A stretch of 27,641 nt of DNA from Hyphomicrobiales bacterium (GCA_027082895.1 JALWTJ010000112.1:1-27641); one strand, 5' to 3'; counted from the stretch's first letter, positions 1,585-27,641 are shown. The notes: generated by a model from the letters alone, not told the origin. Numbers and translations are program-made.

Positions 1585-1652
1585 TTTCACCTAACTGGAC
1601 ATCGGGGGGAAGCAGATCCCTCTCCACGTCGTTGATTGTCAGGGCTTCGGGA

Positions 1653-5024: not shown

Positions 5025-5117
5025 TTTTTTGGGGATTTTTTCACGCATTACGGGCTAACATGTGTACCGCGTTCTCCACCGGAGGGCCGATAGATATTCT
5101 TTGGGAAACACGTTTTG

Positions 5118-7060: not shown

Positions 7061-7963
7061 TCAGCCCGTTTTCGTCATGGCGGAAACCGCCTCCCTTGCC
7101 ACGTCCATGAAGGTGCGGATGAGGCGGCTTTCGCCCCGTTCCGTCAGGCAAATCAGCGCCTCCTGCATCGGCTCGGACAGCCCCGCAATGTCAAGGGGTA
7201 CCAGGCGTCCATCATGGCCGAATTCCGCCCGCGACACGAAACCGATACCGGCCCCCGCCGCCACGATCTCGCGCACCGCCTCCCGACCCTCCGCCTCGAT
7301 GGCCGGGGTCAGCGCGATGCCGTTTCGTTTCGCATACCGTTCCATTATCTGTCGCGTTCGCGACCCCTTTTCCCGCATGACCAGGGGCAGTTTCTGCAGG
7401 TCGTCCGCCGTCAGTACCTGCCCCTTTTCCAGCCCGAATTTTCGGTCCGCACAAAGGCTTGCGGCTGCAAAGGCAATCACCGGCGTCGAACTGAGGGGCA
7501 GGCACTGGAAGCGGGCGGTGGCGGGAACCTCCCCCAGCACGCCGATTTCGGCGCGGTAATTGATCAGGGCATCGCGCACATCGTCACTGTTGCCTGCGCG
7601 CAGGGAAACGAAGATACCGGGAAACCGGGTCCGGAAGGTGCTGAGCACGTCCAGTACATGGAACGGGGAATCGGCGATGATGCGCAGCTTTCCCGCGCGC
7701 AATGCCCGACTTTCCGCCAGAAATTCGCGTGTCTGTTCCTCCGCTTCGAACAGGCGGCGCGTATGAGCCAGCAGCTTTTGGCCGAAAGGGGTCAGGCAGA
7801 CCTGTTTGTGGCTGCGGTCGAACAGCAGCACGTCATGTTCGGCCTCCAGCCGGGCCACCTGGTCGGAAAGGGCCGGTTGCGTCAGCCCCAGCGCGCGGGC
7901 CGCCTTCGAGAACCCGCCATGAATGGCCACATGGTGAAAGGCGCGCAACTGGACATAACGCAT
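7061..7963 (-). CDS. LysR-family regulator of the aminoethylphosphonate-catabolism-associated type
   Basis: HTH QLRAFHHVAIHGGFSKAARALGLTQPALSDQV; ESRALRAGKLRI, GNSDDV, EGREAVREIV and CLTERGESRLI segments resemble the TIGR03339-type family; divergent from phnW. Confidence 0.85.
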   Translation of the reverse strand: MRYVQLRAFHHVAIHGGFSKAARALGLTQPALSDQVARLEAEHDVLLFDRSHKQVCLTPFGQKLLAHTRRLFEAEEQTREFLAESRALRAGKLRIIADSPFHVLDVLSTFRTRFPGIFVSLRAGNSDDVRDALINYRAEIGVLGEVPATARFQCLPLSSTPVIAFAAASLCADRKFGLEKGQVLTADDLQKLPLVMREKGSRTRQIMERYAKRNGIALTPAIEAEGREAVREIVAAGAGIGFVSRAEFGHDGRLVPLDIAGLSEPMQEALICLTERGESRLIRTFMDVAREAVSAMTKTG

Positions 7964-7979
7964 GGGGCGTCTCCAACAA

Positions 7980-7994
7980 ATAAGCAGTATCTAT
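7980..7994. promoter_or_regulatory. Putative LysR recognition site (T-N11-A)
   Basis: ATAA-gcagtat-CTAT imperfect dyad in the AT-rich lysR-phnW spacer, 16 bp upstream of the lysR start. Confidence 0.45.
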
Positions 7995-8090
7995 GATAAT
8001 ATACAAATTAACGATTTTACAAATGAATTGGCAGGTCGTACCAGTGCCAGGCAACAAGCCGGAGCCGTGCATCAGGCGGCCCACCCGCTG

Positions 8091-8108
8091 GCCGGGCACC
8101 TGCCCGGC
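8091..8108 (+). other. GC-rich inverted repeat in the phnW leader
   Basis: GCCGGGCA-CC-TGCCCGGC, perfect 8-bp arms, about 15 nt upstream of the GGAGG RBS. Confidence 0.35.
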
Positions 8109-8134
8109 AGTTTCAAACCCCCGGAGGAAGGCCC

Positions 8135-9313
8135 ATGGATTACACCATCGATATTCCCGAAATGGGCGAGCCGCGGCTTCTGACCCCCGGTCCCCTGACC
8201 ACAGCCACCGCCACCAAGCAGGCCATGCTGAAGGACTGGGGGTCATGGGACGGCGATTTTCGCCAGATGACGGCCCGCATGCGCAAGAACCTGCTCGCCC
8301 TGATCGGTGACCGGGAAGGGGCGTTTGACTGCGTGCCCATGCAGGGCAGTGGCACCTTTGTCGTCGAAGCCATGCTCGGCTCGCTCCTGCCCCGCACCAG
8401 CAAGACGCTGGTTCTGGCCAACGGTGCCTATGGACAACGCATCGCGCGCACCCTGACCTATCTTGGGCGGGACCATGTCACCATCGACAAGGGGGACTAT
8501 CTGCCCCCGCGCGCCGACGAGGTAAGCGCAGCCCTTGCAGCGGATTCCGCCATCACCCATGTGGTGGTGGTGCATTGCGAAACCAGTTCGGGCATTCTCA
8601 ACCCCATCGAAGAAATCGCGCAGGCCGTGCACGCGGCGGGCCGCAAACTTCTGATCGATTCCATGAGCGCCTTCGGGGCCATCGACCTTGATTGCAACGC
8701 CATTCCCTATGAAGCCATCGTCTCATCTGCCAACAAGTGCATCGAGGGCGTTCCCGGTTTCGGTTTCGTCATCGCCCGCAAGGCGGCCCTGGAAGCGGCG
8801 GCGGGCAATGCCCATTCCCTGTCCCTGGATCTGCATGATCAGTGGCAGGTGATGAACGAAACCGGCCAGTGGCGTTTCACCCCGCCGACCCATGTGGTGG
8901 CCGCCTTTCTTGCCGCCCTCGACCTGCACGAGAGGGAAGGGGGCGTTGCAGCCCGCGGCGCCCGTTATGCCGCCAATCGTGATGTGCTGGTGGCCGGCAT
9001 GCGCAGGCTGGGCTTTGAAACCCTGCTTGATGCACGCTGGCTGTCGCCCATCATCGTCACCTTTTTCAATCCGGCCGATACCCGTTTCGCGTTTCCCCGA
9101 TTCTATGACCTGATGAAGGACAAGGGCTTCATCATCTATCCGGGCAAGCTCACGGTGGTGGACAGTTTCCGTATCGGCTGCATCGGTAATCTGGATGCAG
9201 CACTGATGCAGCAGGTTGTCACGGCCGCCGCCGAAGCGCTCCGCAAAATGGGTGTGGACAGTGCCCGTCCCCCCGAAAAGGCATTGCGTGAACGGGCCAT
9301 CCTGGCCGCCTGA
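8135..9313 (+). CDS. phnW: 2-aminoethylphosphonate--pyruvate transaminase
   Basis: [36 protein letters not shown] lysine in [30 protein letters not shown]. Confidence 0.95.
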
Positions 9314-9362
9314 CCCGCCCTGCGTGTCACTCTTTCCAACACACAACCAGAGGAATATTTCC

Positions 9363-10211
9363 ATGACCCAATTCAACGAATTCACCTGGCAGCGCAGCTA
9401 TCGGGGCGGCGTCAAGGCGCTGGTGCTGGACTGGAGCGGCACCCTTGCCGACGCCTATGTCATCGCCCCGGCGGTGGTGTTCGTCGAAGTGTTTGCCAAG
9501 CAGGGGGTGGAGATTTCCATGCTCGAGGCGCGCGGCCCCATGGGATTGCGCAAGGATCTGCATATCAAGAAGCTGACCGAGGATCCGGTAATTGCCGAGC
9601 GCTGGAAACAGGTCAAGGGTGCCTATCCGACCCAGAAGGACGTGGACGCCATGTTCGCGGATTTCGTGCCCGCCCAACTGGCTTGCCTGAAGAAATACAC
9701 CGCCCTTTTGCCCGGGGTGAAGGACGTGATGCTGCGCCTGCAGGCGCGTGGCATCAAGATCGGGGCTTCCACCGGCTTCATCCGCTCCATGGTGGATGTG
9801 CTGCTCAAGGACTGTATCGCGCAAGGCTTCACCCCCGATGCAACCGTTGCCGGTGACGAGGTGGTCCACGGCGCCCGTCCGGCCCCCCACATGGTCTATC
9901 GCAATCTGGACCTGATGGGTATTGATCCCATCCAGTCCGTAGTCAAGGTGGACGATACCGCATCGGGCGTCGGGGAAGCCCTGAACGCAGGCTGCTGGGG
10001 GGTGGGCGTGGTGCGCTACTCCAACTACATGAACATCAATTCCCTTGAAGAGGCCGAACAGCTCGACGATGCGGAAATTGCCCGGCGCATGGATCATACG
10101 CGGGACATTCTGCTCAAGACCGGCGCTCACTATGTGATCGACAGTCTGGCCGATATCGAACCGGTGATCGAGGATATCAACGCACGTCTGGCCCGCGGCG
10201 AACGGCCCTGA
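9363..10211 (+). CDS. phnX: Phosphonoacetaldehyde hydrolase (phosphonatase, HAD family; 282 aa)
   Basis: DWSGT nucleophile motif, Schiff-base lysine in PMGLRKDLHI, KVDDT motif; ATG 9363 after GAGGA; directly downstream of phnW. Confidence 0.93.
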   Translation: MTQFNEFTWQRSYRGGVKALVLDWSGTLADAYVIAPAVVFVEVFAKQGVEISMLEARGPMGLRKDLHIKKLTEDPVIAERWKQVKGAYPTQKDVDAMFADFVPAQLACLKKYTALLPGVKDVMLRLQARGIKIGASTGFIRSMVDVLLKDCIAQGFTPDATVAGDEVVHGARPAPHMVYRNLDLMGIDPIQSVVKVDDTASGVGEALNAGCWGVGVVRYSNYMNINSLEEAEQLDDAEIARRMDHTRDILLKTGAHYVIDSLADIEPVIEDINARLARGERP

Positions 10212-10441
10212 CGGTTTCCTGCCTTTCCATGGCATCGGTTCCACCGGACCGTGGGGGGGAGAGGGAAAATGTTGGGGGCAGGCAGAACGTTTCTGCTGCA
10301 CCCGAAAAATTGCGGGGCGCGCCTGTAAAAGGCCGCCCCCATGATTTTTCACTCACCCCTTGATAATTCATATCATGCCGCCCTGCATCACGGTGCAGGT
10401 AATACCAGAGTCTCTGGTGCTCCCCGTCCGGCGCGGCAATG

Positions 10442-12133
10442 TTATTGGGCGGCCTTCTCTTCCCGATTGTCCATCTCTTCCACCAGCCGGGTTTCCAGCA
10501 ACTGGCCATTCTTGTACAGGATCGGGTAGGCCACGGCTGCGATCTGGGAATTCAGATCCTTCAGGGCCCGCAGGGTTTCCAGATGAATGTCGCTGCTTTC
10601 AAAGCTCTCCTCCAGCCCCTCGCGCAGGCGTTTGAGATGCTTCTTGCGGCTCTTGTGTTCCTTGCTGGCCATGTTGGCCTTTTCTTCCATCAGCAGCCGC
10701 GCACTTTCCAGATCTTCGGACAACAGCACGTTGAACGCCAGGGTCATGTTGGCCATGACCCGCTCATGCAGCCCCAGAAGTTCCTGCCACCCAGCCTTGG
10801 AAAATTTCAGGTGCTTGCGCTTCTTTTCCGCAGCAAGCTGCATCAGTTTTTTTGAAATGATGTCCCCGGCCACTTCCAGGTTGATGGCATATTCGGTCAG
10901 TTCGCGGGCGTGGCGTGCCTCCGATTTTGTCATGCGTTCCCGCGGAATAGCGGCCACATAGCGCCGGATATCGCTCAGGGCTTCGTTGACCTCCTTGTCC
11001 AGATCCCGGATGAATTCCATCTGTTCGGTGTCCCCGCTCTGGTAAAGCTCCATCACCGGGCGCGCCATCATTTCCACGATTTCCCCCATCCGGAGAATTT
11101 CCCGCGTCAGGCTGGCGAGGGCCATTTGCGGATTGTTGATCACCCGATGGTCAAGGGCGCTCACCGGCTTCATCCGCTCCCCGTCTTTTTCCGCCACCGG
11201 GTCGGAAGGCAGAAGGGAAAAGACCGGCTTTTCCAGAAGGCTGACGAAAGGCAGGGCGGAAATCAGCAACAGGATGTTGAAGGCCAGGTGAACCGAAACC
11301 AGGGTCTGCCCGTCGCCGAACCCGCGGAACAGGCCCAGAACCGGCGTGTTGTTGACGATCAGCAGGGCGATGATGGCGCCGATTCCGCGCAGGATCAGGT
11401 TGCCCAGCGGCACCCGGCGTGCATCCACCGCCATTCCCCGGGACAGCCAGATGGGCAGGGTGGCACTGCCCAGATTGGCCCCCAGGATCAGCGAAACTCC
11501 GGCCCCCACCGGCAGCGCCCCCAGGGACACGAAGGTAACGAACATCAGGATCGCGGCCACGCTGGAATGCATGACGAAGGTCACCGCCGCCCCCACGAGG
11601 AAAGCGGTAACATAGTCCGAGCGCAGATATTCGGCGATGGCCGGCAGGAAGTCCCCGTCCCGGATCGGGCCCATGGCCTCCCCGATCAGGCGCAGCGCCA
11701 GCAGGATCAGGGCCACGCCCAGCAGGATACGCCCCACCTGCCGGAGCACGGGGCCCTCTACCTTCAGGAACAGATAGCCGCCCGCCGCCAGCAGCAGCGG
11801 GATCATCCAGGACAGCTTGAACGACAATATCTGGATGACCAGCGCCGAGCCCACATCGGCCCCCAGCACCACCGACAGCCCCCCGGTGAAGGAGAGCAGC
11901 CCGCTGCCGGCAAAACCGGACGCCAGAAGGGCCGCGGCCGTGGCGCTCTGCAGGATGATCGCCAGCAGCACTCCGGCAAAGGCCGTCTGCAACCGGTTTT
12001 CGCGCCGGGCGGTGATGATGCGGCGGAAGCTGGAGCCCATGGACCGCTCGATGCCCGTCTGCACCATGCGCACGGCAAACAGCAGCAGCATGGTGGCGCC
12101 GGCCAGATTGAGAATGAAAATGAGTGTCGTCAC
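10442..12133 (-). CDS. Na/Pi cotransporter family protein (NptA/YjbB-like) with C-terminal PhoU-like region
   Basis: Repeated QSATA / LGADVGS and HSSVA / LGANLGS motifs, N-terminal TM helices and helical C-terminus; GTG start with AAGGAG RBS. Confidence 0.9.
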   Translation of the reverse strand: MTTLIFILNLAGATMLLLFAVRMVQTGIERSMGSSFRRIITARRENRLQTAFAGVLLAIILQSATAAALLASGFAGSGLLSFTGGLSVVLGADVGSALVIQILSFKLSWMIPLLLAAGGYLFLKVEGPVLRQVGRILLGVALILLALRLIGEAMGPIRDGDFLPAIAEYLRSDYVTAFLVGAAVTFVMHSSVAAILMFVTFVSLGALPVGAGVSLILGANLGSATLPIWLSRGMAVDARRVPLGNLILRGIGAIIALLIVNNTPVLGLFRGFGDGQTLVSVHLAFNILLLISALPFVSLLEKPVFSLLPSDPVAEKDGERMKPVSALDHRVINNPQMALASLTREILRMGEIVEMMARPVMELYQSGDTEQMEFIRDLDKEVNEALSDIRRYVAAIPRERMTKSEARHARELTEYAINLEVAGDIISKKLMQLAAEKKRKHLKFSKAGWQELLGLHERVMANMTLAFNVLLSEDLESARLLMEEKANMASKEHKSRKKHLKRLREGLEESFESSDIHLETLRALKDLNSQIAAVAYPILYKNGQLLETRLVEEMDNREEKAAQ

Positions 12134-12158
12134 GATATCTCCTTGCGGGCCAACCGGC

Positions 12159-12980
12159 TCACTTCCCCTTTTTCTTTTTCTCTGCGGCCACCAGTACCTT
12201 CACCTTCCAGCGTTCCATGGCGCGCGCAAATTTCTCGGGCAGGGGCTTGTCGCAAACCAGATAGTCCACTTCGTTGGGGGCGCAGGACACCATGGGCGCC
12301 GACTGGTCCAGCTTGGAATGGTCCACCGCCATGATGGTGTGGCGCGCCTGACGCACATAGACCTGGGCCAGTTCGGCCTGGGACTGTTCGGACACCAGAA
12401 ATCCTTCCTCCGGGTCAATGGCCCGGGCGGAAAGGATGGCAAAATCGGCGCGGAACTTGGCCGCATATTTCTGTGTGGGGGTGCCGAAGGTGCCCCCGGT
12501 CTGCCCCTGCAGTTCACCGCCGGCCAGAAAGACCCTGTTCCCCCTCCGGGTCATCAGGGTCTGGGCAACGGTCATGGAATTGGTGACAATGGTCAGGTTG
12601 TGCGCATGGCGCAGCGCCTCGGCAACAAACACGCTGGTGGAACCCGTATCCATGAACAGCGTCGCCCCGTCGTCAATCAGGGATGCGGTCCGTTCAGCAA
12701 TCGCGCGCTTGGCATCGGCCCTCTCCCCGATGCGTTTGTGCAAGGCGGTAAGGGCAAGATCACTGCCCAGATAGACCCCGCCATGGACCCGGGAAACCCG
12801 TCCCTCCCGGGACAGTTTTTTCACTGTCCGGCGGATTGTTTCTTCCGACACTTTCATGGTATCGGCAAGATGGCTTGTCCTGGCAGACCCCCCAAGACGC
12901 TGCAGGGTTTCCAGCAGTTCAAGCGCGCGGTGAGTCTTGCCGCCTTCTCGTCGTTTCTGTTCCTGTTCCACTTTGACCAT
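12159..12980 (-). CDS. DeoR/GlpR-family transcriptional regulator
   Basis: HTH VSEETIRRTVKKL...RVHGGV; sensor motifs AKRAIA, FMDTGSTS, IVTNS, LAGG, DHSK. Confidence 0.9.
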   Translation of the reverse strand: MVKVEQEQKRREGGKTHRALELLETLQRLGGSARTSHLADTMKVSEETIRRTVKKLSREGRVSRVHGGVYLGSDLALTALHKRIGERADAKRAIAERTASLIDDGATLFMDTGSTSVFVAEALRHAHNLTIVTNSMTVAQTLMTRRGNRVFLAGGELQGQTGGTFGTPTQKYAAKFRADFAILSARAIDPEEGFLVSEQSQAELAQVYVRQARHTIMAVDHSKLDQSAPMVSCAPNEVDYLVCDKPLPEKFARAMERWKVKVLVAAEKKKKGK

Positions 12981-13005
12981 GGGGCTGCATAAATCACGAA
13001 TGGAT

Positions 13006-13077
13006 AAAAATCCACACTAAACGTGCGTTTTCAGGGAAAATTGATTAATTTTCCGGACGTTTTTGTGGGTTTTTGTG
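13006..13077. promoter_or_regulatory. Operator-like motifs in the DeoR / PMH divergent spacer
   Basis: Dyad GGAAAATT-N4-AATTTTCC (13035-13054); direct repeat TTTTTGTG at 13060 and 13070; AAAAATCCACA at 13006 is a near-inverted copy of TGTGGGTTTTT at 13064. Confidence 0.45.
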
Positions 13078-13116
13078 TGTTTCAGCAGGTGCGCCGCCTT
13101 TTTCCGGGAGAAAATC

Positions 13117-14682
13117 ATGTCCGAAACCCGCTCGCCCCGTTCCGGCAGGAAAGTCCTGTTCATCATCATTGACCAGTTGCGGGCCGATTGCATCCATGGC
13201 CGTCTGGCCGATCATGTGAATCTGCCCAACATTGCGGCCCTGCAATCTGAAGCCATGAGCTTTGATGCCCATTTCTCGGTAACCAACCCGTGCGGTCCTT
13301 CCCGGGCCAGCATTTTCACCGGCCTTTATGCCATGAATCATCGCTCCATACGCAACGGCACGCCCCTTGACGGCAACAGGACCAACGTTGCCCTGGAAGC
13401 GCGCAAGGCCGGATACGACCCGCTATTGTATGGCTATTCCGATACCACCATGGACCCGCGGTTCTTCCACCCCATGGACCCCCAGTTGCACAGCGAGGAG
13501 CGGGTCCTGCCGGGCCTGCGTGAAATGCTCGAAATGCGCTATCTGGAAAGCTACCCCTGGCGCGCCCATCTGGTGGCACGGGGCTATGATGTTCCCGACT
13601 ATTCCCGTTTCTACGAATCCGTCTCCCCCGACCCGGACCGACCGGCCCGTCCGGACGATCCGCCCTTTTACCGGGCCGAGGACAGCGATACCGCCTTTCT
13701 CGCCGACAAAGTGCTGGAGGATCTGGCGGTTCGCCGCCATCAGGACTGGTTTGCCCTTGTCACTTTCCTGCGCCCCCATCCTCCCTTCGTGGCCCCGGCG
13801 CCCTATAACAGGATGTATGACCCCGCCCGGCTGCCCCTTCCCATCGGCCTGCCCACCCGGCAGGAGGAAGCCGCCGTTCACCCCTTCATGAAGGCCGCCC
13901 TTGTGGCCCCGTCCATGGTTCAGACGGTCAAGGGCTGCGATGGGCAGATCGAAAACGGCAATGTTGAAGACATTCAGACCCTGCGTTCCATCTATCTGGG
14001 GCTGGCAACGGAGGTGGACCGGCATGTGGGCCGGATCATCGATTTCCTCAAGGACTCCGGACAATATGACGACACGCTGATTTTCCTGATGGCGGACCAC
14101 GGGGAAATGCTGGGCGATCATCATATGTGGGGAAAACAGAACCCTTACGAAGCCGCCTACCGGGTACCCCTGATCATCCGGCATCCCGACATGAAGGACG
14201 GGCACGGAACGCGGACGGACATGTTCACCGAGTCGGTGGATATCATGCCCACCATTCTGGAGTGCCTGGGCCGTCCGGTCCCTGCCGGGTGCGATGGCCG
14301 ATCGCTTCTGCCCCTGTTGCGGGGGGAACAGCCGGCAGACTGGCGTGACGCTGTGCATATGGAACTGGATTTTGGCGAACCGGATCAGGATACTCCGTGG
14401 CAACAGGCCACCGGCTGTTCACTGGACGAGGCCAATCTGGCCATCCTGCGTGAAAAACGCTTCAAGCTGGTCCATTTCAACGGAGGGCTGCCGCCCTTGC
14501 TGTTCGATCTGGAAACGGATCCGGACGAACTGCACGATCTGGCCGCAGATCCCGCCCATACCCCGCAGCTCTTGCGCCTGACGCGAAAACTGCTCAGCCT
14601 GCGCATGCACCACGCCGACCGGACTCTGGCCAATGTGCGCATAACTCCGCAGGGTGCCGTGAACTTTCACGATGGAACCTGA
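13117..14682 (+). CDS. Phosphonate monoester hydrolase / phosphodiesterase (PMH/PehA family, alkaline phosphatase-sulfatase superfamily), cytoplasmic, 521 aa
   Basis: DQLRAD metal motif, CGPSR formylglycine motif, TGLYAMNHR, GYSDTTMDPR, RPHPP, DHGEMLGDH, WGK and C-terminal HADRTL resemble Rhizobium/Burkholderia PMH; no signal peptide; ATG 13117 with GGGAG RBS. Confidence 0.8.
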   Translation: MSETRSPRSGRKVLFIIIDQLRADCIHGRLADHVNLPNIAALQSEAMSFDAHFSVTNPCGPSRASIFTGLYAMNHRSIRNGTPLDGNRTNVALEARKAGYDPLLYGYSDTTMDPRFFHPMDPQLHSEERVLPGLREMLEMRYLESYPWRAHLVARGYDVPDYSRFYESVSPDPDRPARPDDPPFYRAEDSDTAFLADKVLEDLAVRRHQDWFALVTFLRPHPPFVAPAPYNRMYDPARLPLPIGLPTRQEEAAVHPFMKAALVAPSMVQTVKGCDGQIENGNVEDIQTLRSIYLGLATEVDRHVGRIIDFLKDSGQYDDTLIFLMADHGEMLGDHHMWGKQNPYEAAYRVPLIIRHPDMKDGHGTRTDMFTESVDIMPTILECLGRPVPAGCDGRSLLPLLRGEQPADWRDAVHMELDFGEPDQDTPWQQATGCSLDEANLAILREKRFKLVHFNGGLPPLLFDLETDPDELHDLAADPAHTPQLLRLTRKLLSLRMHHADRTLANVRITPQGAVNFHDGT

Positions 14683-14959
14683 CACATGCTGTCAGACGGG
14701 CCCGGTTAGGGGGCACCTCTGATGGGAAAGGCAGGCGGGGTAGTGCGGAGGCGAATGGCAGACAGGCATGCACAACCGGAAAGGCGTGGGAGAAGAGAGA
14801 GGAACGCGCGCGCCGGGGCGATAGGACGGCATGCCCGCCGAATTTCCAGCCCGGCAGGCCGCCGCCCCGTTCATGGCTGACATTGCCATGCGGCCCCAAA
14901 TGCTCGTGGTCGCCCCTTTGACCTGAGCGGAAAGGTGTACGCGTCCGGCTGAACAGGCC

Positions 14960-16096
14960 CTATTTGCCCTTTGACCCGGGCTTGCTCTTTGGCTTGGTCT
15001 TTCCCTTGTTCTTGCCGGATGCCTTGGCCTTTTCAGCCTTTGCCGTCGCCGCATGCCGCTTGTCGCTGCGCTCCTTGGCCGCCGCGTCCTCCGCTTCGAA
15101 AACTTCGACCAGCTCCTGCCAGCGATGGCAGGCCACATTGTGCTGATGGGCCGCATGATCCAGAAGCGGCTCCTCGGTACGGCACCGGTCGATCGCAAAA
15201 CGGCACCGGGTCTGGAACTTGCAGCCCGGCGGCGGATTGGTGGGGGAGGGGATTTCCCCCTCCAGCTTGTCCACCACGCTGTCATCATCCGGATCAAGGG
15301 ACGGAATGGCCGACAGCAATGCCCGCGTATAGGGGTGGCGTGGATTGGCGAACAGTTCCCGCGTTGGCGCCGTTTCCACCAGCCGCCCCAGATACATCAC
15401 CGCCACATGATCGCACACATGGGCGACCACGCTCAGATCGTGGCTGATGAACAGGAAGGTCAGCCCCATTTCCTGCTGGATATCCTTGAGCAGGTTGAGT
15501 ACGTCCGCCTGAATGGATACATCCAGCGCCGCCACGCTTTCGTCCGCTACCACGAAGCGCGGACGTGACACCAGCGCCCGGGCAATGGAGATGCGCTGCC
15601 GCTGCCCGCCCGAAAATGCGTGGGGGAAGCGGCGCAGATGTTCCAGATTGAGGCGGCACTTGGCGGCAATTTCGCGCACCCGTTCGTCCGTTTCCGCCTT
15701 TGACGCGGTAATGCCCATTACTTCCAGCGGTTCGGCTATGATGTCCCGAACCGTCATGCGCGGGCTCAGGGCCGCGTAAGGATCCTGAAAGATCAGTTGC
15801 GCACGGGTGCGATAGTCCTTGAGATCACCCTTTTCGATGGCCGCCAGATCATACTTCTTTTCCCCATCATCATAGGTCAGGTCGCCCCGCGTGATCGGTA
15901 CCGCCCGCAGCAACGCCCGCCCCAGCGTTGTCTTGCCGGAGCCGGATTCCCCCACCAGTCCGAAGAAACTGCCCTTTTCGATGTCCAGATCGACACCCTC
16001 GACAGCGCGCACGACGGGTTTCTTGCCCAATCCACCCCCGCGTACGCCAAAGTGAACCGAAAGATCGCGAACTGAAATTAGCGGCGTATCACTCAT
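14960..16096 (-). CDS. Opp/Dpp-type ABC transporter ATP-binding protein (DppF-like) with Lys-rich C-terminal tail
   Basis: [28 protein letters not shown] and C-terminal Cys motif GCKF..RC...C...C. Confidence 0.92.
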
Positions 16097-19282: not shown

Positions 19283-19356
19283 GTCCCCCCCTGGAAAACT
19301 CGGGCATTCTGAAAGTCGGGTGCGGGCAGAGAGCTCCGCCCGTACCGGTTCGTGAC

Positions 19357-19390
19357 GTTCGCCCCCGGCCGATATTGGCCGGGGACGAAC
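19357..19390 (-). terminator. Intercistronic stem-loop after the SBP gene
   Basis: Minus strand GTTCGTCCCCGGCC-N6-GGCCGGGGGCGAAC, 14-bp stem with one G-U pair. Confidence 0.55.
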
Positions 19391-19408
19391 AGTTTTACAT
19401 CACGCGGT

Positions 19409-21457
19409 TTATTCGTCCAGGAACCACTGGTCACCCCGGTAGGGATAGGCCCAGTAATAGTCGTAGGACGCGGTCTTGAACTCGGGAACATTCTTCAGAA
19501 CGTTGCGATGGAAGACCGGCGACACGGCTTTCACGGTGCCGATGAACAGCAGTTGCTTGGTCATGCGTTCGACCATGCGCGCGCCGATGGCGGCCTGCTC
19601 GTCCGAGCCGGGGGTAGCCGACTGGAAGGCAGCAATATCGGCAATCGAGTCGTTGACCCATGCCGGGGGCTCGACACCACGTTCGCCATTGCTCTCGATA
19701 TATTCAGCCCACAGCATGCCGGTGCGGTGTGCGAAATAGTTCTCGAACGGGGGAACGAACTCCTCGTTGTTGCCAAGGATAACGGCCAGGGGCTGGCTCT
19801 TTTCCCAGCTGCCGACCGAGAGCTGGTTGGCGGACTGTGCCGAACGGTACTCGTCGGCGGTGATTTCCTTCACCGTCGTCTTCACACCGACTTCGGCCCA
19901 GTTCTGCGCGACCAGTTCGTTCACCTTGGCCGATGTGCCCTGGGTAGCGAACTGAATGTTCAGAACCAGAGGCTTGCCCGAAGGCAGATCGCGCCATCCG
20001 TCACCATCCTTGTCCACAAAACCGATGGAATCCAGCAGCGCCTTGGCACCTTCCGGATCATATTCGGTCTTGTACTGCAGCATGTCTTCGGAAATGAACC
20101 CGGGAGTTGGCGAGAAGGCAACATACTGCTGGATCTGACCCTGCCCGAAATAGGCAACATCGTTGATTTCCTGCCGGTTGATGGCCACGGACATCGCTTC
20201 ACGGAACTTGATGTTGTTGAACAGTTCACGCTTTTCCAGATCTTCGTCCGTCACGTTGAACGAGAATACCGGGAAGGAGATCTTGGGTTCGAGCCAGACG
20301 GTGTAATCGCCCTTTTCCTGATTTTCAAGCAGGATCGGAGCCATGTCCAGCTGCAGGGACTGCGTCTTGTAGTCCACTTCGCCGTTGATCATCTTGAGCA
20401 CGCGAACTTCCGTTTCCGTCACGAAGGTTTCATCCATCTCGTTGACATAGGGAAGCTGGTGCCCGGCCGTGTCCACCTTGAAATAATAGGGATTGGGCAC
20501 GAAATGCCGTCCCTCGGTGGATTCGCGGACAACGATATGGCTTTCCAGCGTCGGGGCGGCAGCGAAAGGCATGTTCGCGACCTTGTCCGGGCTGTTCAGC
20601 ATCGGGGTGGCGGTATCCATCCAGTCCGAGTTGCCGAAATAGGCCTTGATCACTGCATACCCGTTTTCGAACCCGAGAGCCTGGGCTTCCGCGTCGGCAT
20701 TGGGGTTGATGGCGGGATGGAAGCGGCCCAGCAGATGCTTGGGCTGGAAAGCCTGCGCATAATGGTTGGCAAAGTGGCTCAGAAGGCCCGGCTTGGGAGC
20801 CGGCAGCTTGAACACGACCGTGTACGGATCCGGCGTTTCCACCGTCATCCGCTCGCCACCCACAAGAACATAGTCCTTGGTCTTGGCCATCACGTTGGGA
20901 TCAAGTTCCAGATTGTCATACCAGAACTTGATATCCGCGGAGGTGAAGGGCTCGCCATCGGACCATTTGTGGCCCTTGCGCAGATAGAAGGTCAGCTCGG
21001 TATAGTCATCGTTCCATTTCCAGCCCTTGGCCACGTTGGGAACAATGGTTTCCAGATCGTCCGAGTAGCGCACCAGGTTGACATGGCGAATGGACATCAT
21101 GTCCGACGTGCCTGCTTCGGTGGCGTTGGAGATGATGTCCAGCGTGCCGCCATAATGGCCGATCTCGTCATAAGGGACGACCACCAGCGGTTCTTCGGGC
21201 AGACGCTCGGCAAGCGGGGGAAGATCCGGGTTGCCCTGAATCTGGCTGTTGAAGGCGGCGATGGAAGCATCATCGCGCGACGAAATGTCAAGGGTGCAGT
21301 TCGCGGCAGCTTCGAACTCGGAAAGTTCGTACTGCTGCGGATATGCACCGGCAGCCACGCCCATGCTGTCGCTGACGGTGATTGCCGGGCAAGCAGCGCC
21401 CTGGGCAATTCCGGTCAGCGCCATGAGCGCAACGCCAGAAAGTAGGATTTTCTTCAT
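19409..21457 (-). CDS. Family-5 ABC substrate-binding protein (682 aa), sugar/oligosaccharide-binding-like subgroup
   Basis: Signal peptide; LPPLAERLPEEPLVV...GHYGGTL; LRKGHKWSDGEPFTSADI; FREAMSVAINRQEI. The LPPxAERLPxEP segment also occurs in AgpA-like sugar binders. Confidence 0.85.
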   Translation of the reverse strand: MKKILLSGVALMALTGIAQGAACPAITVSDSMGVAAGAYPQQYELSEFEAAANCTLDISSRDDASIAAFNSQIQGNPDLPPLAERLPEEPLVVVPYDEIGHYGGTLDIISNATEAGTSDMMSIRHVNLVRYSDDLETIVPNVAKGWKWNDDYTELTFYLRKGHKWSDGEPFTSADIKFWYDNLELDPNVMAKTKDYVLVGGERMTVETPDPYTVVFKLPAPKPGLLSHFANHYAQAFQPKHLLGRFHPAINPNADAEAQALGFENGYAVIKAYFGNSDWMDTATPMLNSPDKVANMPFAAAPTLESHIVVRESTEGRHFVPNPYYFKVDTAGHQLPYVNEMDETFVTETEVRVLKMINGEVDYKTQSLQLDMAPILLENQEKGDYTVWLEPKISFPVFSFNVTDEDLEKRELFNNIKFREAMSVAINRQEINDVAYFGQGQIQQYVAFSPTPGFISEDMLQYKTEYDPEGAKALLDSIGFVDKDGDGWRDLPSGKPLVLNIQFATQGTSAKVNELVAQNWAEVGVKTTVKEITADEYRSAQSANQLSVGSWEKSQPLAVILGNNEEFVPPFENYFAHRTGMLWAEYIESNGERGVEPPAWVNDSIADIAAFQSATPGSDEQAAIGARMVERMTKQLLFIGTVKAVSPVFHRNVLKNVPEFKTASYDYYWAYPYRGDQWFLDE

Positions 21458-21708
21458 ATTGGGTTTTCTCCGTTCAGGTTGGTAAAAACTATGCGCGATG
21501 GCCGCACGGGGCCGGCGAAATACGGTATTTTTCTTTCAGATGTGACTTCGCGGCCTGCTGACCGTTCCGCACAGGTACCCGGCACGTTTCCCGTCCCGTA
21601 TGGCCTGTGCAGTCTGGCATTTGCCCGCTTCTCCTCCTCCCAAAGGCAGCGATTGCGCACGGGCACTGATTTCTTGATTCATTTTTTCTCAGCGCCCTCA
21701 GGTGAACA

Positions 21709-21758
21709 AGAATGAACGTGCGCTCGGGCTGTGTCAAGAAACTTACAGGCGGCTGTAA
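21709..21758 (-). promoter_or_regulatory. Putative promoter of the ABC operon with adjacent dyad
   Basis: Minus strand TTGACA (21737-21732), 17 bp, CATTCT (21714-21709); dyad TTACAG-N4-CTGTAA at 21743-21758 just upstream. Confidence 0.5.
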
Positions 21759-21990
21759 CAGTTTCACCACGCTGCTGCGAAGATTTCGTGACATTTGGGG
21801 CGGTCAGAGAGGGCGCCCGGAATTGAAGAACCACGAAGGGCAGCGCGGGGTTTCCAGAGCCTTTCGTGAAGGGTGATGAGAAGTTTTGTCAAAAATAGTA
21901 ATGAAACATCAAATGGATATGGAAGGTGCCCTGATCAGATGACATCCGTATTTTGGTAAAGGGTTCCCCCGGCCCCGGATATTGATTCGT

Positions 21991-22827
21991 TCAGGCCGTG
22001 GCCATGATGGCGATGCCGACGGCCACGATACCCGCCGCCGTCAGACGCAGGCGCCAGGGCCGTTCGTGCAGAACGATGACGCCGATCAGTGCCCCGAACA
22101 GCACCGAGGTTTCTCTAAGGGTGGAAACGAGGCCGAGCGGGGAAAGGGAATTGGCGTAGATGACCAGCCCGTAGGCGGTGGCCGATATGACTCCGCCGGC
22201 CATGCCCGTAAGGGCCTGCTTGCGGCCCATGTTCAGGAGTTTGCCGGCGCGCCGGAAAGTGATGAACAGGGTTACGAAAGCCTCGAAGATGAACAGCCAT
22301 CCGATATAGCTCAGTGCCGCTCCGGCATGGCGCACGCCCAGCCCGTCTGACAGGGAATAGGCGGCAATGTTTGCTCCGGTCAGCAGGGCCGTCAGCAGCA
22401 GACCGGGGGGCATTTTCCCCCGGAACGCATCCCCGGAAAGCATGAGGATGCCAAGGGTAACAATGATGATCCCGACCCATTCCTGCACCGACAGGGCCTC
22501 CCCGGCAAGCACCAGCGCACCAAGGGCAATCAGAACCGGCGAGATGCCCCGCGCAATGGGGTAGGAATGGGACAGATCCCCATCCGTATAGGCTCGGTAA
22601 AGCAGATAATAATAGTAGAAGTGGATGATGGTGGATGCCAGGAGGAACGGCCAGCTTTCCGGGGCGGGCAGGGGGGAGTTCAGCGCCAGCACGATGCCGA
22701 ACGTCACATGCCCCAGGGAAACCAGCCCCAGCGAGATAAGCCGGTCACCACTGGCCTTGACCATGGCGTTCCAGGTAGCATGCAGCAGCGCTGCCGTCAG
22801 AACGAGCAGGAAGACGGTCGAACTCAT
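21991..22827 (-). CDS. EamA/DMT-family transporter (278 aa)
   Basis: About 10 TM segments; AALLHATWNAMVK, GDLSHSYPIARG, STLRETSVLFG. Confidence 0.85.
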   Translation of the reverse strand: MSSTVFLLVLTAALLHATWNAMVKASGDRLISLGLVSLGHVTFGIVLALNSPLPAPESWPFLLASTIIHFYYYYLLYRAYTDGDLSHSYPIARGISPVLIALGALVLAGEALSVQEWVGIIIVTLGILMLSGDAFRGKMPPGLLLTALLTGANIAAYSLSDGLGVRHAGAALSYIGWLFIFEAFVTLFITFRRAGKLLNMGRKQALTGMAGGVISATAYGLVIYANSLSPLGLVSTLRETSVLFGALIGVIVLHERPWRLRLTAAGIVAVGIAIMATA

Positions 22828-22923
22828 TGGACGCTCTCACCGGCGCGGGGAACACAGACCTTGTCCTTCCTTGTTGCCCCGGATTGGGTCCGGGGCAAGA
22901 AAGCCCGTCCGGTGATGGCCACC

Positions 22924-24069: not shown

Positions 24070-24074
24070 TTTTC

Positions 24075-25451
24075 TCACGCTTTCTTCAGATGGTAGGATT
24101 TGGGGCGGGTAAGGTTGTGATAGCCGATCACCGACAATGCGCCCCCCCGTCCGGTATTCTTGCAGCCCGTCCAGCACAGGCCCGGATCCAGATAGTCGGC
24201 CCGGTTCATGAACACGGTGCCCGTTTCGATCTGGCGTCCGATCCGCGCCGCCCGTTCCGGGTCTGCCGTCCACAGGGAGGCGGTAAGCCCGAATTCGCTG
24301 TCATTCATCAGTTCGACGGCTTCTTCGTCCGATGAAACCTTCATGATTCCGACAACCGGCCCGAAGCTTTCGTCCCGCATCACCCGCATCTGGTGGTTGA
24401 CGTTGGTCAGGATCTGGGGGGACAGGTAGGTGCCCCCGTCATCTTCGGCAAAGGTGTCGATATGGGTCTGCGCCCCCATGGCCACCGCTTCGGAAATCTG
24501 CGCCCGCACCTCGTCGGCAAAACGCCGTGCGGCCATGGGGCCAAGGGTGATCTCGGGGTCCAGCGGGTTGCCCAGCTTGTAGGCCGATGCGATGGCCACC
24601 GCCTTCTCAACAAAGGCGTCATAAAGGGACTCGGTGACATAAATGCGCTCGATACCACAGCAGCACTGGCCCGAATTGTACATGGAAGCATCCATGAGTG
24701 TTTCTACCGCGGCATCCAGGTCCGCATCCTCCATCACATAGCCCGGATCCTTGCCTCCCAGCTCCAGCCCCAGGCTGGTAAAGGTTCCCGCCGCCGCCTT
24801 TTCCATGGCCACGCCGCCGCCCACCGATCCGGTGAAATTGACGAAACCGAAGCTTTTCGCCCCGATCAGCGCCGAGGTGGTTTCATGGTCGAGGAACACG
24901 TTCTGGAACACGTCTTCGGGCACCCCCGCCTCGTTGAAGGCCCGCGCCATGCGCTCGCCCACCAGCAAGGTCTGGGTCGCATGCTTGAGCAATACCGTGT
25001 TGCCCGCGATCAGGGCGGGGGCCACGGTGTTGATGGCGGTCATGTAGGGATAGTTCCAGGGGGCCACCACCAGCACCACCCCGTGGGGTTCCCGTTCGAT
25101 CCGGCGTTCAAAGCCGCCGCTTTCCTCCACGATGATCGGCTTGAGGGATTCTTCGGCAATGGCCGCCATGTGCGTGGCCCGTTCGTTGAAACCTCCGAAC
25201 TCGCCGCCATAGCGCACCGGACGGCCCATCTGCCAGGCCAGTTCGGTAACGATGTCATCATTCATTTCGCCTACCCGGGCCACCCCGGCCAGCACCAGGT
25301 CCACCCGTTCCTGGAGCGGACGGGCCGCCCATGCCTTTTGCGCTGCCCTGGCGCGGGCCACCGCATCGCTGGCCTGTTCGTGGGAAAGGACGGGACGTTC
25401 CGCATAAACGGAGCCGTCGATGGGAGAAATACACTTGAGAATTTTTGTCAT
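24075..25451 (-). CDS. Aldehyde dehydrogenase (candidate gamma-glutamyl-aminoacetaldehyde dehydrogenase)
   Basis: PWNYP, FTGSV, catalytic Glu in LELGGKDP, catalytic Cys in NSGQCCC, ESFGPV. Confidence 0.9.
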   Translation of the reverse strand: MTKILKCISPIDGSVYAERPVLSHEQASDAVARARAAQKAWAARPLQERVDLVLAGVARVGEMNDDIVTELAWQMGRPVRYGGEFGGFNERATHMAAIAEESLKPIIVEESGGFERRIEREPHGVVLVVAPWNYPYMTAINTVAPALIAGNTVLLKHATQTLLVGERMARAFNEAGVPEDVFQNVFLDHETTSALIGAKSFGFVNFTGSVGGGVAMEKAAAGTFTSLGLELGGKDPGYVMEDADLDAAVETLMDASMYNSGQCCCGIERIYVTESLYDAFVEKAVAIASAYKLGNPLDPEITLGPMAARRFADEVRAQISEAVAMGAQTHIDTFAEDDGGTYLSPQILTNVNHQMRVMRDESFGPVVGIMKVSSDEEAVELMNDSEFGLTASLWTADPERAARIGRQIETGTVFMNRADYLDPGLCWTGCKNTGRGGALSVIGYHNLTRPKSYHLKKA

Positions 25452-25635
25452 GTTCTTATCCGCTTGCAGATTTTGCGACCGGTGTCAGACCGGTTCGCGG
25501 TAAAGTGTGCCCCCCGAAATCGGGCTGCACATTGTGTTGGGTCAAGAAGCCGGGCCGGGCGGCCTGTGGCAAGGAACGTCTTTTCCCCGTCCCGTTCTGA
25601 CCGGGCAGGGGGACGCCGCTCCGGAGCAGGGGCGG

Positions 25636-27000
25636 TCAGGCCCGCTCGAACCCCCGGGCAACCTCGTAGTCGGTTACCACGCGGGCAAATTCCTCCTGTT
25701 CCCAGGTCGCCGCCCGGTAATAATGGTCGATTACATCATCCCCCATCGCTTCGCGCAGCATGGTTGACCCGTTAAGGGCATCTCCTGCATCGCGCAGGTT
25801 GGAAGGGATATGGTCCGTGTTTTCGGCGCGATAGGCGTCCCCCTTCAGGGCTGGCGCCAACTCCCGCTTTTCCTCGATTCCCTTCAGACCTGCCGCCAGC
25901 TGGGCGGCCATGGCCAGATAGGGGTTCATGTCGGCCCCCCCGATCCGGCATTCGATACGCACGGCCTTGGTGTTTTCCCCGCACAGGCGGAAGCCCGCCG
26001 TCCGGTTGTCGATGCTCCATGCACTGCCGGTGGGGGCAAAGCTGCCCTTCTGGAACCGCTTGTAGCTGTTGATATAGGGCGCGAGGAAATAGGTGAACTC
26101 GGGGGCATAATGGATCAGCCCGGCCACATAGCGCGCCATGGTCTGGGACATGCCATGGGGGCGATCCGGGTCAAAGAACAGGGGCGTGCCGTTGCGCCAC
26201 AGGGATTGATGCACATGGCTTGCGCTGCCCACACGGTCCTGATGCCACTTGGGCAGGAAGGTCACCGCGTGCCCCTGCTGCCAGGCAATTTCCTTGATGC
26301 CATGCTTGGCAATGGTGTGGTTGTCCGCGCATTCCATCGGCGCGCCATAGCGGATGTTCAATTCTTCCTGCCCGGCTTCCGCCTCCCCCTTGGAGCCTTC
26401 GACCGGCACCCCGGCGCCCAGCAGTTCGTTGCGCACCCGGCGCATGATATGCTCTTCCTTGGTGGTCTGCAGGATGTGGTAATCCTCGTTATAGGCGCTG
26501 ATCGGCTTCAGGTCGCGAAAACCTTCGGCGCGGATTTCGTCAAAGGATTTCGCAAAAATGAAGAATTCCAGTTCGGTCGCCATCATGGCGTCCATTCCCA
26601 TGTCTTCGAGCCGCCCCAACTGATGCTTCAGCACCGCACGCGGGGAATGGGCAACCGGCTCATGGCTGTGATGGTCCAGCACGTCACACAGCACCATTGC
26701 CGTGCCCTCCAGCCAGGGGATCAGCCGCAGGGTGGAAAGGTCGGGCTTCATGACATAGTCGCCATACCCTCTTTCCCAGCTCGTGCTTGCATACCCGTCC
26801 GGCGTCGCCATCTCCAGGTCGGTGGCCAGCAGGTAGTTGCAGCAATGGGTTTCTTCCCAGGCGCCATCAATGAAATATTTCGCAACCATGCGCTTGCCCA
26901 TCAGGCGGCCCTGCATGTCCACCATCACCGCAAGGACGGTATCGATTTCGCCTTCAACCACCTTCTTCTTCAAGGCGTCAAACGTTAGATTTCCAGCCAT
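25636..27000 (-). CDS. Glutamine synthetase-like gamma-glutamyl-amine ligase (candidate ethanolamine gamma-glutamylase)
   Basis: GS fold motifs DMQGRLMGKR, TELEFF, EAEAGQEE, HVHQSL, NRTAGFR, RIECR; GSFAP replaces the GYEAP flap of true GSI; AAAGGA RBS. Confidence 0.88.
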   Translation of the reverse strand: MAGNLTFDALKKKVVEGEIDTVLAVMVDMQGRLMGKRMVAKYFIDGAWEETHCCNYLLATDLEMATPDGYASTSWERGYGDYVMKPDLSTLRLIPWLEGTAMVLCDVLDHHSHEPVAHSPRAVLKHQLGRLEDMGMDAMMATELEFFIFAKSFDEIRAEGFRDLKPISAYNEDYHILQTTKEEHIMRRVRNELLGAGVPVEGSKGEAEAGQEELNIRYGAPMECADNHTIAKHGIKEIAWQQGHAVTFLPKWHQDRVGSASHVHQSLWRNGTPLFFDPDRPHGMSQTMARYVAGLIHYAPEFTYFLAPYINSYKRFQKGSFAPTGSAWSIDNRTAGFRLCGENTKAVRIECRIGGADMNPYLAMAAQLAAGLKGIEEKRELAPALKGDAYRAENTDHIPSNLRDAGDALNGSTMLREAMGDDVIDHYYRAATWEQEEFARVVTDYEVARGFERA

Positions 27001-27027
27001 TCGGAATTTCCTTTGTGCAAAGGGAAG

Positions 27028-27052
27028 CCCCGGCGATATCCCGTCGCCGAGG
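27028..27052 (-). terminator. Stem-loop downstream of the TRAP SBP gene
   Basis: Minus strand CCTCGGCGA-N7-TCGCCGGGG followed by CTTCCCTTT. Confidence 0.45.
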
Positions 27053-27117
27053 CAGTTTTCATGTCTTTGGCTTGCCCCAACATTTCCACCGGGGCAAGCA
27101 CTATTTCACGCGCGGCG

Positions 27118-27641
27118 TCAGCAGCTGTAGCGGTAGGGACGGCCCGCTTCCACCATGGTCGCATTGTAGTCCCGGATGATGTTCACCACCTTGGCCTTGA
27201 GTTCGGACTGCGAAGCGATGTCGTCCCAGAACTTGTGGGCCGCTTCTTCCACCTTGCCCCATTCGGCATCGGGAATGGTGGTCAGCTTCAGCTTGTTTTC
27301 CTTCACCCGGAGCCGTGCTTCACCACCCCAGTACCACCACTGACGATGGTAATGGCTGTCGTTCATGCACACCTGAAGCAGCTGCTTCATGTTGTCCGGC
27401 AACTCGTTCCAGCGATCCATGTTGGAGAAGAAATGCCCGATCCAGGCGCCCGAAATGTTGTTGGTCAGGAAATAGTCGGTCACATCGGCCCAGCCGGAGG
27501 TGTAATCCTCGGTAATGCCGGACCAGGCCAGCCCGTCAAGCTCGCCCGTCTGCAGGGCCACTTCCGCATCTTCCCACGGAATGGTCACCGGCACCACGCC
27601 GAACTGTTCCATGAACCGCCCCGCGGTGGGGAAGGTGAAGA
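27118..27641 (-). CDS. dctP: TRAP transporter substrate-binding protein (DctP family), C-terminal part only; ethanolamine-binding type
   Basis: Frame stays open to the right edge: FTFPTAGRFMEQFGVVPVTIPWED...QTGELDG...AGRPYRYSC. Phe in place of the carboxylate-binding Arg region and the GS/ALDH/ADH context fit the amine-binding TRAP subgroup. Confidence 0.85.
   Translation of the reverse strand, partial: FTFPTAGRFMEQFGVVPVTIPWEDAEVALQTGELDGLAWSGITEDYTSGWADVTDYFLTNNISGAWIGHFFSNMDRWNELPDNMKQLLQVCMNDSHYHRQWWYWGGEARLRVKENKLKLTTIPDAEWGKVEEAAHKFWDDIASQSELKAKVVNIIRDYNATMVEAGRPYRYSC

Follow-up and report, generated by a model that had tools for sequence, protein, structure and literature searches.

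How do bacteria that feed on 2-aminoethylphosphonate (2-AEP) and phosphoethanolamine gain access to these compounds? In nature both are found mainly in esterified form, as parts of phosphonolipids and phosphonoglycans, of phospholipid head groups and of decorated glycans, and to our knowledge all characterised catabolic routes and transporters begin with the free compounds. The question is raised here by a 27.6-kb stretch of DNA, hereafter the window, which is the entire contig of a Hyphomicrobiales metagenome-assembled genome (MAG; 2.56 Mb, 91% complete). Between positions 7061 and 27641 the window holds lysR-phnWX for 2-AEP catabolism, a Na/Pi cotransporter-family gene (Pi, inorganic phosphate), a deoR-type regulator gene, a gene (pmh) for an enzyme resembling phosphonate monoester hydrolases (PMHs), a family-5 ATP-binding cassette (ABC) importer, an eamA gene and a block of TRAP (tripartite ATP-independent periplasmic) transporter, glutamine synthetase (GS)-like, aldehyde dehydrogenase (ALDH) and Fe-dependent alcohol dehydrogenase (Fe-ADH) genes. 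The original prediction, made from the sequence alone, had listed these genes, described about 20 kb free of unrelated housekeeping genes and proposed a joined pathway for esters of 2-AEP and phosphoethanolamine. Pfam and NCBIfam profile scans of the window proteins, scored against curated cut-offs, recovered every one of these genes in its predicted place, and there is no housekeeping gene among those listed for 7061-27641. The reading towards which we lean from sequence comparison is that of a composite catabolic island, in which the import of an ester and its cleavage by PMH would feed the 2-AEP and ethanolamine routes.

Eighty loci (designated L001, L014 and so on) were fetched around PMH homologues 51-69% identical to that of the window, on contigs from one genome per species, mostly marine Rhodobacterales/Paracoccaceae, Hyphomicrobiales and Devosia MAGs with a few isolates. 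All window proteins were mapped onto these loci and all open reading frames (ORFs) of the loci were also clustered without prior bias; neighbourhood frequencies and a PMH tree were drawn only from the 50 loci with at least 6 kb of flank on each side. A family-5 ABC importer adjoins PMH in 42 of these 50 well-flanked loci and is thus a conserved partner of PMH, not the orphan for which the original prediction had taken it. The ABC proteins of PMH-linked loci are 72-93% identical to those of the window, mostly 75-90%, against 51-69% for PMH itself. Both transcription units are mostly convergent, as in the window, and co-directional in L058, L075, L076 and L080.

Around this core of six genes, 16 of the 50 loci carry genes for 2-AEP catabolism no more than 10 kb from PMH, in at least five gene orders. 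PhnW is found with PhnX in nine of the 80 related loci as well as in the window, and with PhnY and PhnA in nine (PhnY, TIGR03250, 750 bits; PhnA, TIGR02335, 505 bits; both over their cut-offs), so that two non-homologous routes of 2-AEP degradation are attached to the PMH-ABC unit. Ethanolamine (Eto) genes, coding for the GS-like ligase, Fe-ADH, ALDH, an FGase-type enzyme and RpiR, stand beside PMH in 13 of the well-flanked loci and about 16 of the 80, and Na/Pi-PhoU homologues in 12 and 17, respectively; the GS-like gene follows directly downstream of the Na/Pi gene in one operon, with gaps of 33-36 bp in L044 and L046 and of about 130 bp in L055. A deoR gene is near PMH in 14 of the 80 loci, directly divergent from pmh in ten. 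EamA occurs in nine, lying in L028, L038 and L055 between phnX and the gene for the substrate-binding protein (SBP) of the importer. A HisN-like member of the inositol-monophosphatase (IMPase) family was found in seven, between the Na/Pi and deoR genes in L024, L025, L028 and L072 and elsewhere beside PMH in L032, L064 and L076.

The order lysR-phnWX-NaPi-deoR-pmh is common to the window, L001 and L014, while L024 starts at phnW; other arrangements are SBP-eamA-phnX-phnW (L028, L038, L055), SBP-phnXW-lysR (L042) and lysR-NaPi-phnWX-eamA-pmh (L032). The comparison of PMH neighbourhoods, which the original prediction had suggested as a check, therefore finds the ABC, phnWX or phnWYA, Eto, Na/Pi, DeoR and EamA genes recurring in rearranged orders. 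The PMH tree of the 50 loci requires at least 8 state changes for the AEP linkage and at least 9 for each of the Eto and Na/Pi linkages. Chance alone would put a single-copy gene of a 4-Mb genome within 10 kb in some 0.5% of cases, whereas 24-32% were observed. Chance clustering, on which the original prediction had made a reservation, is excluded because each of these linkages needs at least 8-9 changes.

The association was also followed across 300 genomes sampled from the order of the window, of which 33 hold the SBP, 60 a PMH homologue and 65 PhnW. PhnW is present in 22 of the 33 genomes with the SBP and in 43 of the 267 without it, an odds ratio of 10 among genomes that are not independent by kinship, and 11 of 16 genera bear the co-occurrence out. 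Genus g79 has a distant version of the unit, with PMH about 40% and SBP 50% identical, in which PhnW still lies between both genes. None of PMH, SBP and PhnW is found in the nine genomes of the window's own family, so the island was probably acquired as a block. Of the joined pathway put forward in the original prediction, the functional coupling of the blocks is strongly supported by neighbourhoods and genome-wide counts alike; its orphan importer is mistaken. This linkage is strong, whereas the substrate, its cleavage by PMH, the direction of Pi transport and the regulation are what we infer.

In loci with the ABC operon and no PMH, neither a glycerophosphodiesterase (GDPD) nor a glycosidase was found to replace PMH beside the ABC genes. 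A divergent PehA-like sulfatase-fold enzyme (305 bits) follows the ABC operon in genomes G059 (L087:1-4655) and G206 (L093:15443-20000), and in G271 an IMPase-family (HisN-like) phosphatase stands directly after the ABC genes. The PehA-like gene of G059 and G206 is itself followed by that of a protein of about 990 amino acids, which joins a reductive-dehalogenase-type domain (TIGR02486, 209 bits, over the cut-off) to 4Fe-4S motifs and has a C-terminus of the DmmA-like/flavin reductase kind.

What kind of enzyme is the hydrolase? Its gene (13114-14682, + strand) is divergent from deoR, and the protein matches the Pfam families Sulfatase (PF00884, 142.6 bits), SGSH_C (PF16347, 71.8 bits) and Phosphodiest, which gives a sulfatase fold with a C-terminal SGSH_C-type domain. 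The best solved relative is entry 4UPK, a 'phosphonate monoester hydrolase' (574 bits), followed by 4UPH, 2W8S and 2VQR, against less than 200 bits for arylsulfatases; judged by these scores, the enzyme is a relative of PehA, nearer to the PMH of entry 4UPK. The formylglycine motif CGPSR occupies residues 59-63 of the window protein (P0003), and the motifs IIDQ, CGPSR, MNHR, RPHPP, DHGE and WGK align with all four structures. The aligned metal and active-site residues (DQ, N, H, DH and K) are reported by Jonas et al. 2008 to be the catalytic ones. The PMH has no signal peptide, nor room for one before the catalytic core that begins at residue 11, and is predicted to be cytoplasmic.

The importer is encoded on the - strand by an operon of five genes (21457->14960) that converges on pmh and makes up a complete family-5 set. 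Its first gene codes for a 682-amino-acid periplasmic family-5 SBP of the sugar-binding subgroup (19409-21457; Pfam SBP_bac_5), with a signal peptide visible in the translation; the remainder (14960-19282), of the Dpp/Opp type (DppF/D/C/B), comprises two permeases (18278-19282 and 17109-18281; BPD_transp_1 with OppC_N) and two ATPases (16093-17109 and 14960-16096; ABC_tran with oligo_HPY). No curated equivalog is reached by the system, the best being Opp4A with 116 bits against a cut-off of 650. The best solved relatives of the SBP are the pectin-oligosaccharide binder SPH1118 (7VER, 229 bits), Thermotoga maritima 5IPW, and binders of alpha-galactosides and chitin oligosaccharides; the nearest thus bind oligosaccharides, anionic ones included (PMC9314435), and not peptides. 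Upstream of the SBP gene, conserved k-mers were considered as a regulator site and set aside, as they resemble a sigma-70 -35/-10 pair instead. A 534-bp non-coding stretch without Rfam match (21458-21990) separates this gene from eamA, and its sole ORF (101 codons, 21489-21794, - strand) has no Pfam match. The eamA product (21991-22827, - strand; Pfam EamA) is a membrane protein related to the phosphonate-utilisation-associated DUF6 family (TIGR03340 phn_DUF6, 153 bits; cut-off 288).

The 2-AEP block begins with a LysR-type regulator that probably belongs to the aminoethylphosphonate-catabolism subfamily (7061-7963, - strand; Pfam HTH_1 and LysR_substrate), syntenic in L001 and L014 and divergent from phnW, for which TIGR03339 (phn_lysR; 303.9 bits, cut-off 341.1) is by far the best-matching model. 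Next to each other on the + strand and each over the curated cut-off are the genes for 2-aminoethylphosphonate:pyruvate transaminase, PhnW (8135-9313; NF010006, 565 bits, cut-off 296; TIGR02326, 489.7 bits, cut-off 400.8), and phosphonoacetaldehyde hydrolase, PhnX (~9411-10211; TIGR01422, 286.5 bits, cut-off 220). The start of phnX was placed by the TIGR01422 match, which begins at residue 66 of a long ORF open from 9216. None of the known 2-AEP transporters AepXVW, AepP and AepSTU was recognised beside the window phnWX, where no sequence search aimed at them was made.

Two genes on the - strand connect this block to pmh. The first codes for a YjbB-like member of the Na/Pi cotransporter family that carries a PhoU domain (10442-12133; Pfam Na_Pi_cotrans and PhoU; NF037997, 107.5 bits, cut-off 50), in which PF02690 matches in two stretches and PF01895 (PhoU) at residues 346-427, a YjbB-type layout. 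It is probably co-transcribed with the gene for a DeoR/GlpR-family regulator (12159-12980; Pfam DeoRC and HTH_DeoR; best NCBIfam match DeoR/GlpR with 152 bits, under the cut-off), which is divergent from pmh. YjbB-type proteins are reported, in a paper that cites Motomura 2011 for it, to promote Pi export (PMC7980370). The deoR-pmh intergenic region (12981-13113) contains a CCACA box (13002-13006, within CCACAC at 13002-13007) and a tandem TTTTTGTGKG repeat (13060-13079). Both are conserved in an alignment of ten orthologous deoR-pmh regions and together make a candidate DeoR operator. A perfect 20-bp palindrome of the same region, GGAAAATTGATTAATTTTCC (13035-13054), was rejected as a shared operator: within the window it is found a single time, and relatives do not conserve it.

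The Eto block occupies the far end of the window. Read from 27641 to 22924 on the - strand, it codes for the C-terminal part of a TRAP DctP-type binding protein in the EtoX position (27118-27641; Pfam DctP, E 7e-11), cut by the contig end and 73-74% identical to homologues adjoining the GS and ALDH genes in L060 and L088; a GS-like gamma-glutamyl ligase in the position of ethanolamine gamma-glutamylase (25636-27000; Gln-synt_C, 318 bits), under all GlnA cut-offs and with 196 bits to gamma-glutamylputrescine synthetase; an ALDH in the position of gamma-glutamylacetaldehydeamide dehydrogenase (24075-25451; Aldedh, 390 bits); and an Fe-ADH in that of gamma-glutamylethanolamide dehydrogenase (22924-~24060; Fe-ADH and ADH_Fe_C). 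The reference operon of Phaeobacter sp. MED193 reads RpiR-GGAH-EtoVWX-ETAGA-GAADDH-GETADH, with a further example in the Csal_0678 cluster of Chromohalobacter salexigens (PMC10132767). The family order in the window matches this standard, which agrees with the original prediction that the block is an ethanolamine set, and contig C480 of this genome supplies the remaining Eto genes, those for RpiR and an FGase-type amidohydrolase.

How would these blocks act together? In the mechanism that we propose, the simplest to account for every partner, the core is a feeder unit of two parts. The SBP and ABC permease would import a small ester carrying a 2-AEP or phosphoethanolamine head group, R-O-P(O2)-CH2CH2NH3+ or R-O-P(O2)-O-CH2CH2NH3+, in which R would most probably be a sugar, an oligosaccharide or glycerol. 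As the second part, the formylglycine hydrolase PMH would then expel R-OH in the cytoplasm and free the head group, as enzymes of its group do with model substrates. Free 2-AEP would be converted by PhnW and PhnX, under LysR, into acetaldehyde and phosphate, and in other lineages would enter PhnWYA. Ethanolamine would be released directly, or from phosphoethanolamine by a phosphatase for which the HisN-like enzyme of relatives is a candidate, and would then follow the gamma-glutamyl Eto route. The canonical substrate of HisN, histidinol phosphate, is an amino-alcohol phosphate too. The YjbB-like Na/Pi-PhoU protein, probably co-transcribed with DeoR, could dispose of or balance the released phosphate as a Pi release valve, and DeoR could control both pmh and the Na/Pi gene from their common intergenic region.

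As to the identity of R, the sugar-type relatives of the SBP favour a sugar, as do genes beside pmh in ten Paracoccaceae loci (L037, L040, L044, L046, L050, L051, L056, L062, L078 and L079), whose products may process the released alcohol part. Just upstream of pmh all ten have an acid-sugar-dehydratase-like gene of the MR_MLE enolase superfamily; in six of them a choline-dehydrogenase-like GMC oxidoreductase gene, divergent from pmh, stands between the two, and in five an SDR gene lies further upstream. Glycerol is favoured by the GlpR-like regulator and by the historical substrate of PehA. The latter is reported by Dotson et al. 1996 to be glyceryl glyphosate.

Other partners touch on the head group. 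L001 and L014, the closest syntenic relatives of the window, carry directly after the last ABC ATPase gene a gene for a DadA-like PF01266 FAD oxidoreductase (L001:11583-12845 and L014:10970-12231, both - strand; NF001933, 395 bits), split into two ORFs in L014, where the window has just a 278-bp gap (14682-14960). From its family, this protein may be an N-methyl-AEP oxidase like PbfB, PbfC or PbfD, FAD amine oxidoreductases that funnel N-methyl-AEP into PhnWX (PMC10590968). DMGDH-like N-demethylases are found in the flanks of pmh in six loci and directly adjoin it in two. Together with the GMC enzymes and a choline sulfatase described below, these extra partners fit N-methylated or choline-type head groups.

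Several observations weigh against the composite island as we read it. AEP and Eto genes are missing from the surroundings of about two thirds of the PMH-ABC loci, which suggests that the unit may take several zwitterionic esters or something else, with a broader specificity than the window implies. In L081 (9124-13066, equivalent to L005) a TauE/SafE-family exporter gene lies upstream of pmh and a true choline sulfatase gene (TIGR03417, 869 bits) between pmh and the ABC operon; the importer of this lineage may also take choline-O-sulfate-like esters. The enzyme itself scores 485.2 bits with the PehA equivalog model and so remains under the cut-off of 900, and the promiscuity of PMHs in vitro means that specificity cannot be read from sequence. 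The Eto operon can act on free ethanolamine alone (PMC10132767) and has its own TRAP importer, with no need of a feeder. The window yielded no phosphoethanolamine phosphatase, and the incomplete genome around it holds only distant IMPase paralogues. At the level of regulation, pmh is transcribed separately from the ABC operon and towards it, every block has a regulator to itself (LysR, DeoR or RpiR), and the conserved deoR-pmh motif (CCACA ... TTTTTGTGKG x2) is absent from the ABC, phnW, EamA and Eto promoters of the window, for which no common operator was found. The sequencing runs that hold the window come from a hydrothermal-vent metagenome, the source of the MAG as well, and are DNA only, with no RNA run among them.

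How far do such observations call for another explanation? One would make PMH-ABC a general system for the uptake and cleavage of small zwitterionic amino-alcohol esters (choline-O-sulfate and phosphocholine, glycerophosphocholine or -ethanolamine, and also N-methylated forms). Esters of 2-AEP would then be a side substrate at most, and PhnWX would lie nearby only because these lineages pool their head-group catabolism in one island. It could draw on the choline sulfatase and TauE genes inserted at the unit in L005/L081, on the choline-dehydrogenase-like GMC enzymes divergent from pmh in six loci and the DMGDH-like N-demethylases in the flanks of six, on the DmmA-like fusion protein that follows the PehA-like enzyme in G059 and G206, and on the homology of PMH to choline sulfatase. 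We nevertheless regard it as rather unlikely: the commonest catabolic neighbours are AEP genes of two different pathways (16 of 50 loci), the distant version of the unit still encloses PhnW, and free phosphocholine and choline sulfate usually enter through BetT or ChoX-type systems (PMC10132767). That the importer takes a sulfated or otherwise anionic oligosaccharide on which 'PMH' would work as a sulfatase, with horizontal transfer and the island formed by it as the sole reason for the phosphonate and ethanolamine genes to be adjacent, would accommodate the sulfatase fold with its formylglycine motif, the oligosaccharide-binding relatives of the SBP, TauE with a second sulfatase in one locus, the GMC, MR_MLE and SDR genes beside pmh in ten loci and a probable acquisition of the island, given its absence from all nine genomes of the same family. 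This is very unlikely in our view, since the nearest solved relatives belong to the PMH group and not to the arylsulfatases (574 against less than 200 bits), the recurrent partners are phosphate-related (Na/Pi-PhoU, the HisN-like phosphatase, PhnX and PhnA) with no sulfur gene among them, and no glycoside hydrolase is found among the gene families recurring in the 80 loci.

There remains a clustering by chance or by history alone, in which independent catabolic operons would lie side by side with no common flow of substrate. It is consistent with the separate regulator or promoter of each block and the failure to find a common operator, and with PhnWX and Eto being self-sufficient in other bacteria (PMC10132767, PMC8316502). 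It is contradicted by the synteny and barely credible: many lineages have the same modules by PMH-ABC, the arrangements number at least five, each linkage involves 8-9 independent changes, and the frequencies are far above the chance expectation. Nor are the linked loci a single mobile element of recent spread, as PMH identities of 51-69% and varying gene orders show.

Other features of the window and of related loci complete this picture. Positions 2-3505 code for a fragment of a MarR-type regulator and a ribose-type sugar ABC system (Peripla_BP_4, BPD_transp_2 and ABC_tran), neither of them conserved beside PMH in any relative. A protein with MxKDx pentapeptide repeats (4206-5048, - strand; TIGR02953, 32 bits, cut-off 41) is encoded divergently from an OmpR-type response regulator and HAMP histidine kinase pair (5115-7047, + strand). 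This pair is syntenic with lysR-phnWX in L001 and L014 (66-79% identity), which thus share with the window even the genes upstream of the island; it may be part of the island or merely inherited alongside. Scans of the window for repeats, Rfam families, promoters and terminators gave nothing over background. Some Paracoccaceae MAGs (L070, L071 and L074, with L057, L068 and L067) have three PMH paralogues in tandem with an ABC operon on either side, so that the unit seems to have expanded, and IS4/IS5-type transposase genes between pmh and the ABC operon in L026 (11874-14617) indicate that this junction tolerates insertions. The whole unit is present in two cultured organisms, Marivivens marinus MK-3 (L076) and Pseudohalocynthiibacter aestuariivivens BS-W9 (L072), while the pmh of Pararhizobium mangrovi BGMRC 6574 is accompanied by Eto, IMPase and Na/Pi genes but by no window-type ABC operon.

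PMH enzymes have for two decades served as a textbook example of catalytic promiscuity. A wider proposal, which we put forward tentatively, is that PMH and its dedicated sugar-type ABC importer are the missing de-esterification step of marine bacteria: C-P cleavage or gamma-glutamyl catabolism would be preceded by the release, from conjugates, of phosphoethanolamine and of phosphonates (2-AEP, and perhaps others bound as esters to glycans or to organic matter in solution). Such a route, cytoplasmic and Pho-independent, would be present in about a tenth of the genomes sampled from this order; the 80 loci place it mostly in marine Rhodobacterales/Paracoccaceae MAGs. The literature contains hints in this direction. 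Sosa et al. speculated that a PMH-type enzyme might free phosphonates esterified to marine polysaccharides or organic matter (PMC5649143), a 2026 paper mentions pmh beside phnWX or phnWYA in passing and without analysis (PMC13608971), and a Pho-independent use of head groups has been left unexplained (PMC10132767). Surveys of AEP accessory genes (PMC8154272, PMC10590968, PMC12366243) and a study of AEP transporters (PMC8316502) make no mention of PMH or of this ABC system. In the literature searched, no paper assigns a physiological substrate or a transporter to PMH, and neither the PMH-ABC pairing nor the joined pathway is described; the original prediction had likewise known of no description of the latter. 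The opening of the ester bond is an acknowledged gap, for which a conserved importer-hydrolase pair by two AEP pathways and ethanolamine catabolism is a concrete candidate. PMH enzymes gain a physiological context, cultured carriers exist for genetics, and the unit suggests a route, not yet described, by which esterified head groups of lipids or glycans would serve as nutrients.

How does the island compare with known systems? The window enzyme shares with PMHs of known structure (PehA/BcPMH 2W8S, RlPMH 2VQR and 4UPK) the fold, domains, CGPSR motif, aligned motifs and a predicted cytoplasmic location. Whereas known PMHs are promiscuous catalysts in vitro without assigned physiological substrate or partner, the window-type PMH has an ABC importer as its conserved partner, and genes for AEP, ethanolamine and phosphate recur around it. 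The lysR-phnW-phnX block is canonical, and accessory enzymes that funnel AEP-related compounds into PhnWX or PhnWYA are established in the case of PbfA-D (PMC8154272, PMC10590968); the accessory step proposed here, ester hydrolysis with a dedicated importer, is not among the described Pbf enzymes. With the Eto operon of C. salexigens and MED193 the window shares gene families and order, and differs in that, in the window and about 16 relatives, Eto genes are physically joined to PMH-ABC and a Na/Pi gene.

The proposed logic is also that of UgpBAEC/UgpQ and GlpQ, where a phosphodiester is bound and imported or cleaved and both alcohol and phosphate are used, and a GlpR/DeoR-type regulator is a further likeness. 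In the window, however, the SBP belongs to family 5 and not family 1, and the hydrolase is a formylglycine enzyme of the alkaline phosphatase superfamily and not a GDPD; it could act on phosphonate monoesters as well, which GDPD enzymes are not known to cleave. In choline-O-sulfate utilisation (BetC and its transporter), a homologous cytoplasmic enzyme of sulfatase fold releases the amino alcohol of a zwitterionic ester after its import, and BetC is what L005/L081 carries within the PMH-ABC unit. The window enzyme, however, falls in the PMH branch, with only 154 bits for the choline sulfatase model (cut-off 433), and its neighbours are phosphorus rather than sulfur genes. PhnWX with its LysR, the Eto operon, YjbB-type proteins and PMH enzymes were thus each known separately; what the literature searched does not describe is the conserved importer-hydrolase feeder on this known catabolic core.

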